Virus record (IMG/VR): IMGVR_UViG_2728369591_000008
Location: 1 to 16,498 of that record
DNA from: a virus
Taxonomy: Duplodnaviria; Heunggongvirae; Uroviricota; Caudoviricetes
Strand: one strand, 5' to 3'
Length of the DNA stretch: 16,498 bases
A program made the position numbers and the translations under genes. The notes below the pieces were generated by a model, which worked only from the letters and a program-made list of their open reading frames with translations, had not been told where the DNA came from and made no database searches. Shown here one piece after another: positions 13,675 to 15,167 of this stretch (the stretch's first letter is position 1; every line of letters begins with the position of its first letter).

Positions 13675-14568
13675 ATGGCAAGACCAAAAAAATTAACTTA
13701 TGGGGCGGTGAATATAACAATGCATCCCCACTCGCCAGAAAAATATGTAGAATTGTTCAGAATGGCAAGAAAAAACGCGAGAAATGTTAATTTGAGGGGG
13801 GACTCTTTCGCGACTTTATCACACTTTTATCCTTACAGGAAAGATCAGGTAGTTAGTGAACCTTTTGAAGGGGAAATTCTAAAGTATACAGATATTGATG
13901 TTGATGGAGATTGGTTCGATATTGTAAAGAAAGACATTGCCTCAGATGAGCAAAAGGAAAGGATAAGTATACCTGAGAATTTAAAACCAAATGTGGCTCG
14001 ATTCTCTTTTGTTTTTCTACCTGCCAGCCATCTTTTAGTTTATGAGATGCAGGACAAAGGTCGGCATCTTACATCAAAACAAATAGAAAATTTTCTGAAT
14101 GGAATATTTTCTCATGAGAGAATTATAGAGAAGTTTGGGAAGATTAATGTTACAATATTAACCGAGCCAGATAACGTAGAACGTATGCTTTCTTTAAAAG
14201 GCATTACGTGTATAAATATGGTTACTCGACGTCCTAACCCAGATGATCTCGCTTCTGCAGAAAGTATTATGCAAAAGCGTTTCAAACGTATTGGCGTTAT
14301 TGAAGAAGATAAAACATATAAATCTGAGCGTGGTCAGGAAATTAAACCTGATAGTGAGTTAAAGCAGGATGCTCTTATTGCTTCGAGAAATGGCGAAGTT
14401 AGCATACGTAGGATTAATGAGGCGGGATTAGTTGAGGTTCATGCCTCAAGCGATTTACCACTTCAAAGGGTTGAATCATATGATTCTGACGTAACATCAG
14501 TTACTGAGCTATTGTTATTAAGAGCAAAATCTTTAGCAGATGAGTTTAAGAGGCTTCTGAGAAAGTAA
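13675..14568 (+). CDS. Hypothetical soluble protein (297 aa), gene A of AT-rich two-gene cassette; candidate defense sensor/enzyme
   Basis: Long ORF in a visibly AT-rich stretch; no transmembrane segments; no motif I recognise; stop overlaps the downstream start (TAATG). Confidence 0.8.
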   Translation: MARPKKLTYGAVNITMHPHSPEKYVELFRMARKNARNVNLRGDSFATLSHFYPYRKDQVVSEPFEGEILKYTDIDVDGDWFDIVKKDIASDEQKERISIPENLKPNVARFSFVFLPASHLLVYEMQDKGRHLTSKQIENFLNGIFSHERIIEKFGKINVTILTEPDNVERMLSLKGITCINMVTRRPNPDDLASAESIMQKRFKRIGVIEEDKTYKSERGQEIKPDSELKQDALIASRNGEVSIRRINEAGLVEVHASSDLPLQRVESYDSDVTSVTELLLLRAKSLADEFKRLLRK

Positions 14569-15167
14569 TGAGTAAAGTAAAAGAATCAACCAGTGCAATG
14601 GCTAGATACTGGAAGATCTATGGTGGCGCTGGGGCTGTATTTAAAAGTCGCTATTTTTGGTGTGCTTTTTTTATGACAGTGATTCTTTATCCATCTTGGT
14701 CTCATCAGGGGTGGTGGAATGATATTCTGTCGTTAATGCCGAACCTTTTGGGTTTTTCACTGGGTGGTTTTGCTATGTGGATTGCTATTGGAGATGAGGC
14801 TTTCAAAAAAATAATAACTGGAGATGAAGAAAGTGAAAATGGAGAGGTAGAATATTCTCCTTATATGTCTGTGAATGCAACCTTTGTTCATTTTATATTA
14901 TTGCAGTTGTTAACTATAATAACGGCCTTGGTCACCAAGGCCTATAGTAGCATTCTCATAAATAACGCTTTTATGTATTATTATTTAGGTGTTGCTTACA
15001 GGTATGTACTGTTAACATTCAGCTTCTTTGCATACTTTATATTTATTTACTCAGTATTCTCTGCGTTAGCTGCCGTTTTTGCTATATTTCGTGTTTCTAG
15101 TTGGTATAATACTTTTATGACCTTACGAAACAAACAAGATAACGCTAAAAATAATAAGGAGGAATAA
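14568..15167 (+). CDS. Integral membrane protein (199 aa, about four TM helices), gene B of two-gene cassette; candidate membrane effector
   Basis: Hydrophobic helices near YFWCAFFMTVILYPSW, ILSLMPNLLGFSLGGFAMWIAIG, VNATFVHFILLQLLTIITALV, YVLLTFSFFAYFIFIYSVFSALAAVFAIF; charged C-terminal tail; translationally coupled to gene A. Confidence 0.8.
   Translation: MSKVKESTSAMARYWKIYGGAGAVFKSRYFWCAFFMTVILYPSWSHQGWWNDILSLMPNLLGFSLGGFAMWIAIGDEAFKKIITGDEESENGEVEYSPYMSVNATFVHFILLQLLTIITALVTKAYSSILINNAFMYYYLGVAYRYVLLTFSFFAYFIFIYSVFSALAAVFAIFRVSSWYNTFMTLRNKQDNAKNNKEE

Follow-up and report, generated by a model that had tools for sequence, protein, structure and literature searches.

Rex-like two-gene abortive-infection systems are the closest described counterparts of the cassette studied here. 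The cassette lies in a 16,498-nucleotide (nt) stretch of viral DNA (positions 1 to 16,498 of IMG/VR record IMGVR_UViG_2728369591_000008; hereafter the window) and consists of gene A (13675..14568) followed by gene B (14568..15167), both on the + strand. Described systems include RexA/RexB of phage lambda, gp44/gp43 of Gordonia phage CarolAnn, gp30/gp31 of Mycobacterium phage Sbash and gp30/gp31 of phage Butters. The CarolAnn, Sbash and Butters systems are expressed from the prophage and have been found experimentally to be defensive, and in the same papers, from 2019-2020, a DUF4747 motif was linked to RexA, Sbash gp30, CarolAnn gp44 and Butters gp30 by weak HHpred matches (PMC6426596, PMC6426606, PMC7542560). 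In addition, 17 'DUF4747/CarolAnn' operons in Acinetobacter appear among known or predicted immune operons under CapK/CapS (PMC13373217, 2026). A prophage of P. putida encodes RexABpp (PP_5643/PP_5644), a defence system that combines a DNA-binding RexA-like protein with a membrane-damaging partner that has four transmembrane (TM) segments (PMC12894663). Sucellos (SclA/SclB) of V. cholerae is a validated defence system of the abortive type that needs both genes and has its own promoter; it is RexAB-like, is unmatched by the RexA and RexB Pfam models and is reported to be 'often in Salmonella' prophages (bioRxiv 10.1101/2024.07.02.601686).

We consider it probable that the cassette is a RexAB-type two-component abortive-infection module that occupies the terminal hotspot of a phage-satellite-like island as interchangeable cargo. 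This reading is supported by the family and predicted fold of A, the hydrophobic segments of B, the conserved pairing of the two genes, their defence context, their mobility, and the defensive Rex-like pairs in the literature. The cassette fits the class of RexAB-type systems on all features checked (anatomy, fold, pairing, and context), and by analogy it most likely represents a new E. coli member of these known systems. A preliminary description of the window had regarded the cassette as an undescribed anti-phage system. Its functional guess was reasonable, but the claim of an undescribed system was overstated: DUF4747 had already been tied to Rex and actinophage defence in the papers cited above, and RexAB-type pairs are known to defend in P. 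putida and V. cholerae. The remaining novelty lies in the B family of proposed effectors and in the conserved polar motifs of the DUF4747 proteins.

Gene A and gene B

Both genes start with ATG and encode proteins of 297 amino acids (aa) for A and 199 aa for B, in the positions reported for them earlier. A is a soluble DUF4747 protein and the proposed infection sensor; B is a membrane protein with four hydrophobic segments and the proposed membrane effector. The two open reading frames (ORFs) overlap by 1 nt in a TAATG stop/start junction (14566..14570, + strand), which is read in the sequence: the stop codon TAA of A (14566-14568) and the start codon ATG of B (14568-14570) have one common base, the A at 14568, and the genes are translationally coupled. 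A Shine-Dalgarno sequence, AAGGAAA, is located upstream of gene A (13659-13665, + strand). Relative to copies in IMG/VR contigs with ~91-93% protein identity, A and B have ratios of nonsynonymous to synonymous substitution rates (dN/dS) of 0.06 and 0.05, respectively, and both genes are under strong purifying selection. The low dN/dS, the full-length DUF4747 match of A and the many homologues of both proteins show that A and B are genuine genes rather than chance ORFs. Two other ORFs in this region, 13247..13564 and 14112..14285 on the - strand, were rejected as genes, having neither family matches nor RefSeq annotation.

The G+C content of positions 13400-15200 is 0.359, compared with 0.470 across the remaining window. 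At third codon positions (GC3), it is 0.29 in A and 0.33 in B, and 0.49-0.61 in the backbone genes for the integrase (int), AntA (antA) and the primase. The cassette had been described as more AT-rich than the rest of the island, and this holds as an overall comparison; however, two further stretches, 8600-9200 (G+C ~0.36) and 10000-11600 (0.36-0.41), are also low in G+C; the cassette block is the longest AT-rich block of the island and not the sole one. The AT-rich upstream part of the cassette (13414..13674, + strand), whose edge was obtained from sister-island comparison, is the presumed promoter region, and its last ~115 bases before A (13560-13674) are conserved with other enterobacterial cassettes (L044/L045). 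The conserved sequence suggests that a promoter travels with the cassette, although a consensus promoter scan found no strong + strand promoter in 13414..13674. A promoter and terminator scan of the cassette gave nothing beyond shuffled expectation, and the upstream region has no Rfam match. Downstream of B, a 3' tail (15168..15228, + strand) extends until backbone homology returns.

Gene A matches the Pfam family DUF4747 (PF15931) over the whole profile (1-257/257), scoring 327 bits (E 9.5e-98) where the gathering cut-off is 27. It is named 'DUF4747 family protein' in RefSeq and belongs to PHROG 10040, and gene B belongs to PHROG 20580 (E 1.2e-35). The statement that neither protein could be placed in a named family is therefore no longer valid. 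The profile searches suggested in the preliminary description were informative for A through Pfam; they yielded no Pfam family for B and no meaningful PADLOC match. As had been noted, A has no membrane segment, and its highest Kyte-Doolittle mean over 19 residues is 1.17. A search of 1.84 billion representative proteins with the DUF4747 profile (E <= 1e-3) retrieved 1,265 clusters (50% identity) from Proteobacteria and beyond. Nearly all of the 150 top-scoring clusters are 285-310 aa in length, and close homologues of A are plentiful in Salmonella. A has no NCBIfam match and only a chance-level match to GajB in PADLOC-DB v2 (E 0.012), and sequence and profile searches of the PDB found no solved relative.

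The AlphaFold2 (AF2) model of A has a pLDDT of 91.6, and its best fold match in the PDB is lambda RexA (8twq_B; 7.9, 134). It is followed by CHL4 (6qlf_N; 7.4, 129), RdgC (2owl_B; 7.2, 164), CENP-N at ranks 4-6 (6eqt_A, 7bxt_M, and 7xhn_N; 6.3-6.5, 114-118) and IML3 at rank 7 (4it3_A; 6.2, 112). The predicted fold of A is of the RexA/RdgC type, which takes the RexA/RexB analogy of the preliminary description beyond gene layout. Lambda RexA and RdgC are DNA-binding dimers or rings, and the model suggests that A, too, is probably a DNA-binding dimer. RdgC, a recombination-associated DNA-binding ring (PDB 2OWL), differs in that it acts alone as a housekeeping or phage recombination modulator with no membrane partner, and it has no sequence similarity to A. 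The strongly conserved polar motifs of A are H19, H119, E124, R186-P-N-P-D190, and N239-G240. In the BFVD, one uncultured phage (Siphoviridae sp. ctylc9) has structural matches to both A and B (A0A8S5S8L2 / A0A8S5S8H0). The match to A is a protein of 314 aa (E 2.6e-12) and the weak match to B is a protein of 172 aa (probability 0.85); the two may form a further Rex-like pair of greater divergence.

BLASTP of A against lambda RexA returned nothing, and A does not match Pfam RexA (PF15969) at E up to 1. In Pfam, lambda RexA and RexB belong to PF15969 and PF15968 only and not to DUF4747. At the HMMER level, this does not reproduce the claim in the literature that RexA 'has a DUF4747 domain'. CarolAnn gp44 and gp43 fall into no Pfam family at E up to 10. 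For profile comparison with hhalign, DUF4747 alignments of 37 and 118 sequences and a RexA alignment of 27 sequences were used. DUF4747 and the RexA alignment were matched with a probability of 0.2%, and the values for the RexA alignment, CarolAnn gp44, Sbash gp30 and Sejanus gp46 were at most 0.4% throughout; the DUF4747 and B alignments compared with the CarolAnn and Sbash proteins gave 0.06-0.1%. A control, in which lambda RexA was compared with actinophage 'RexA homologues' including CarolAnn gp44, was equally negative. Since the method fails for RexA and its literature-accepted homologue gp44, the negative hhalign result for A carries little weight. One non-significant stretch, A 241-254 (EVSIRRINEAGLVE) and lambda RexA 215-228 (DISLRAKDEAGDIL), was picked in every profile comparison. 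It begins at RexA D215, a residue whose replacement (D215W) alters DNA binding (PMC11077077). The resemblance may be due to chance.

Gene B has hydrophobic segments at ~29-47, 56-74, 103-124, and 145-175. With a hydropathy cut-off of 1.5, segment 1 falls below the threshold, and its assignment is based on AlphaFold helices at 28-45 and on the lack of charged residues in 29-48. The AF2 model (pLDDT 83) contains long helices that coincide with the hydrophobic segments. The termini are rich in K/R and the central loop is acidic, consistent with an N-in/C-in topology as judged from hydropathy and the model. B is predicted to be an inner-membrane protein with four hydrophobic segments, in agreement with its earlier description as a small polytopic membrane protein. 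The B family has two invariant motifs at segment 2, L61-GFSLGG-G67 (LGFSLGG) and G75-D76, which fall within the segment and right behind it, and the invariant residues of segment 3 are F106, H108-F109-I110 and Q113. Conserved small and polar residues of this type would be expected for helix packing or pore lining. No relative of B was found in Pfam, PADLOC, NCBIfam or the PDB, and a fold search of its model against the BFVD returned nothing significant. Compared with RexB, BLASTP found nothing and the B profile reached E 0.35-0.82; no similarity to CarolAnn gp43 was detected either. PDB sequence searches with RexB found no RexB structure.

Compared with the described systems, lambda RexA/RexB (PF15969 / PF15968; RexA PDB 8TWQ) belong to other Pfam families and have no sequence similarity to A and B. 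Lambda RexB has 144 aa, whereas B has 199 aa and its own conserved motifs; the lambda rex genes are co-transcribed with the repressor gene, whereas A and B, with an overlap of 1 nt, are preceded by an upstream region of their own. The CarolAnn, Sbash and Butters pairs, each a soluble and a four-TM protein, resemble the cassette in its predicted layout. They differ in their longer soluble proteins (~370 aa) and in their actinobacterial hosts, and the comparisons with CarolAnn gp44 and gp43 and Sbash gp30 gave no profile similarity to the DUF4747 or B alignments. The likeness to RexABpp is by description only, and the paper on it does not mention DUF4747 (PMC12894663). Kiwa (four-TM KwaA and KwaB with DUF4868) is likewise a two-gene defence system composed of a small polytopic membrane protein and a soluble DUF protein; neither A nor B matches KwaA or KwaB in PADLOC-DB v2.

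The Acinetobacter 'DUF4747/CarolAnn' operons are probably of the same family as the window pair, since the Acinetobacter DUF4747 gene that we checked has a B-family partner (E 4e-49). That Sucellos also belongs to this family is plausible, from a comparison by description only, because Sucellos occurs often in Salmonella prophages and there are many Salmonella DUF4747 entries. The Sucellos locus is apparently VCA0367-0368, as inferred from a primer name, and a genome-contig search with one peptide pattern returned no V. cholerae locus. If Sucellos does belong to the DUF4747/B family, the window cassette is simply an E. coli Sucellos.

Conservation of the pair and the cargo slot

A total of 42 loci from species-representative genomes and IMG/VR contigs were compared. 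A B-family gene lies directly 3' of the DUF4747 gene in 36 of them. The six exceptions comprise two loci cut by a contig end (L036 and L062), a 29-residue fragment (L037), a locus with a truncated A and no B (L035), and two loci with B alone (L054 and L055). Gene A directly precedes gene B in every locus checked by hand. The A/B identities to the window pair are 61/56, 38/48, 31/40, and 30/27%, with B (48%) closer to its window copy than A (38%) in Shewanella. The two genes diverge in parallel, their junctions in homologous loci overlap as TAATG, ATGA, or TGATG, and the homologous modules are AT-rich relative to their hosts. Only three plasmid records match A/B, and tblastn with A and B found no match in 50,697 GenBank phage records.

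The neighbourhoods of the pair are diverse. In a P2-like prophage of Shewanella dokdonensis (L004 7691-9490), the pair comes directly after, and overlaps, an HTH_3 repressor-like gene (106 aa). In a Citrobacter rodentium island the neighbours are an integrase gene and a PAAR-like toxin gene, and in a V. parahaemolyticus prophage the pair adjoins the integrase gene. In a metagenomic defence island, a type I restriction-modification (R-M) S subunit gene lies upstream and SMODS/SLATT and GmrSD genes lie downstream. On a small Acinetobacter plasmid, the pair is accompanied by a RelE/ParE toxin-antitoxin pair. Collectively, A and B are a conserved, co-oriented, translationally coupled pair that moves among prophages, satellites, islands and defence islands. 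A RexA-like soluble gene followed by a membrane protein gene, paired on mobile elements, is the layout of RexAB-type systems.

The repressor-A-B order in the S. dokdonensis prophage recalls lambda cI-rexA-rexB, and a RelE/MqsA-like toxin-antitoxin pair and an Ogr/Delta gene occur nearby. In L054 and L055, the B-family gene (4980-5561, IMG/VR) has no DUF4747 gene; it is situated just downstream of NinG-like and Q-antiterminator-like lambdoid genes, and a KilA-N-like ORF follows it. Some phages may thus use B on its own or together with a different partner.

Sister islands define the slot that the cassette occupies. The last common backbone gene before the slot is a 59-aa ORF (13163..13342, + strand), which is annotated in the sister islands and has no Pfam match. 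It is WP_032200750 in E. coli F9792 (L001) and strain 08-00022 (L002), and its variants are WP_016262941 (L018/L019), WP_021518388 (L023), WP_318342172 (L017), and WP_047091674 (L020). Homology to the island of strain 08-00022 ends at 13413 and returns at 15229, with SieB in between, which sets the limits of the cassette at 13414 and 15228. A second right-hand breakpoint is present at 15177, where the cassette match stops in eight genomes; in L020, the one inspected of the eight, the cassette is in an island at another chromosomal site and adjoins paoD. The backbone of the E. coli E189 (L023) island is 97.7% identical over window positions 2029-13335. Directly after the 59-aa ORF, the E189 slot holds genes for a DNA methyltransferase, a DUF262 protein and a MAE_28990/MAE_18760 HEPN nuclease (L023 2592-5690; NZ_AP024521.1 346091-349189). 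The slot has no annotated gene in strain cq9 (L018), and it contains the cassette in L001 and L020. Given these differing occupants (SieB, the methyltransferase/DUF262/HEPN trio, none, and the DUF4747 pair) on a common backbone, the slot is a cargo hotspot that holds anti-phage genes in related elements. The preliminary description had proposed that the cassette was acquired separately and that it occupies an end hotspot for defence genes in a satellite island, and the sister islands bear out both proposals.

Positions 13300-15400 are 100% identical in three complete E. coli genomes, and 13 of 5,426 complete E. coli genomes carry the cassette. The G+C content of the A/B module is low relative to the E. 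coli, Shewanella and Citrobacter hosts. The low G+C content in these three hosts and the rarity of the cassette among E. coli genomes support its horizontal mobility.

Proposed mode of action and alternative explanations

We infer an anti-phage function for the cassette by analogy, and a mechanism can be proposed from lambda RexAB, CarolAnn gp44/43, Sbash gp30/31, P. putida RexABpp, and V. cholerae Sucellos. The pair would be expressed constitutively from its own promoter. A would sense infection in the form of a phage protein or an intermediate of phage DNA replication or recombination, and would then activate B, which would depolarise or permeabilise the membrane. The resulting drop in ATP would lead to growth arrest or cell death, the phage cycle would remain incomplete, and sister cells and the island would thereby be protected.

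Several points weigh against this interpretation. The literature searched contains no experimental work on the window cassette or on any bona fide DUF4747/B-family pair. A and B have no sequence-level link to RexA, RexB, CarolAnn gp44/gp43 or Sbash gp30 by BLASTP, HMM or hhalign (<= 0.4%), and no PADLOC v2 model matches either protein. B resembles nothing known, and to call it an ion channel is pure analogy. The B-family gene stands alone in two of 28 viral loci. Butters uses its soluble protein as the effector (PMC7542560, PMC12894663), and the direction of signalling should therefore not be assumed.

A different view of the lineage, which we regard as possible but doubtful, is that DUF4747 and B form an independent defence family, in which B, unrelated to RexB, would represent a novel type of pore or channel triggered by phage and A would have a trigger chemistry unlike the non-specific DNA binding of RexA. 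The motif set HPH, RPNPDD and NG of A (His/Glu/Asp/Asn) is absent from RexA and could form a ligand-binding or catalytic site. If so, the RexA/RdgC fold would recur as a scaffold of infection sensors, with exchangeable membrane effectors as partners.

Three further explanations are each less well supported than a RexAB-type module. The roles of the two proteins may be reversed as in Butters gp30/gp31, with A as the protein that acts against the phage, for instance by clamping DNA and so blocking phage replication or recombination, and B only sequestering or restraining A until infection; we consider this unlikely. The RexA/RdgC-like fold of A points to DNA binding (PMC11077077), RdgC itself inhibits RecA functions, and the conserved polar motifs of A listed above could mark an active or binding site. 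The Butters membrane partner is, as PMC7542560 is summarised in PMC12894663, dispensable for defence, but the membrane protein is the effector in four of five described Rex-like systems (PMC12894663). Moreover, the conservation of B equals or, often, exceeds that of A (48% versus 38% identity in Shewanella), the invariant polar and glycine motifs within its membrane segments are more fitting for an active effector than for a passive anchor, and B occurs without A in some phages.

It is quite improbable that the cassette is not primarily a defence system. It would then be an addiction pair similar to toxin-antitoxin systems, a RexA-like modulator of the lysis-lysogeny switch of the helper or satellite, or a modulator of recombination like RdgC. 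Such a role would agree with lambda RexA, which biases the CI/Cro switch independently of RexB (PMC11077077), with the regulation of recombination by RdgC-fold proteins, and with the resemblance of a small membrane protein and its partner to some type V/VII-like toxin modules. The genomic context argues otherwise: the cassette is optional, as the same backbone occurs with other cargo or none; the pair is also found outside prophages, in defence islands where R-M, CBASS-like and GmrSD genes adjoin it, and on small plasmids that have RelE/ParE beside it; and it has no conserved repressor or operator as a partner. Least likely of all is superinfection exclusion at the envelope, in which DNA entry or other early steps would be blocked and the cell left unharmed. 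It might be proposed from the SieB annotation of the alternative cargo in the slot, the small inner-membrane protein B and the frequent action of prophage and satellite morons at the envelope. Against it, SieB of the lambda type is itself an exclusion protein of the abortive type, an entry blocker would not be expected to have a cytosolic partner with a DNA-binding-type fold, and the Rex-like pairs that have been validated arrest growth or kill the cell (PMC12894663; bioRxiv 10.1101/2024.07.02.601686).

As a RexAB-type module, the cassette would leave current concepts unchanged, and its value is incremental. The DUF4747 family is currently tied to Rex systems only by weak profile matches and fold prediction. 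If the cassette protects E. coli, it would provide this large family with a tractable coliphage-host model and would offer a second, sequence-unrelated membrane effector to compare with RexB. To our knowledge, the mechanism of RexB activation is unresolved ~70 years after Benzer's rII experiments. A slot that exchanges SieB, the methyltransferase/DUF262/HEPN trio and the DUF4747 pair is also useful for mining defence genes.

The host island

The window starts with the end of actS, followed by tRNA-Gly(CCC) (835..908, + strand; ARAGORN), the integration site and left end of the island. The RefSeq annotation of E. coli F9792 has the same order of actS, tRNA-Gly and integrase. The tyrosine integrase of the island (1033..2286, + strand) contains the Pfam domains Arm-DNA-bind_3, Phage_int_M and Phage_integrase and lies outside the cassette. 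The island also encodes an AntA-like antirepressor, a D5-type primase-helicase, ProQ/FinO, and PerC, and is a satellite-like element integrated at tRNA-Gly. Two IMG/VR contigs of 15-16 kb, with a B gene 99% identical, both end at the cassette.

A candidate attR (15406..15422, + strand), a partial repeat of the tRNA-Gly 3' end that is weak when taken alone, marks the right end of the island. The 11-nt exact repeat TTCCCTTCGCC is present at 891 and 15406, and identity with the F9792 island stops at 15422. Past the candidate attR (15423-16498), the window contains an IS1 end and yecR (YecR lipoprotein ORF, 16160..16444, - strand), whereas F9792 has GH15 / GhoT / ETT2 type III secretion genes beyond its right end. 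This difference suggests an IS1-mediated rearrangement or deletion at the right junction of the island.

The window and F9792 islands are otherwise near-identical but differ in the replication module (window 7298-9088, L001 7409-11776). The window module encodes the D5-type primase-helicase (6915..8720), and its F9792 counterpart encodes a RepA-family helicase, behind which lie the gene for an SDH-family Clp-fold serine protease and a transposase remnant. This looks like a replication-module swap inside the satellite. Two low-GC ORFs without a Pfam family, 10053-11195 (380 aa; G+C 0.40, GC3 0.32) and 2409-3212 (267 aa; window G+C ~0.38), may be extra acquired cargo.

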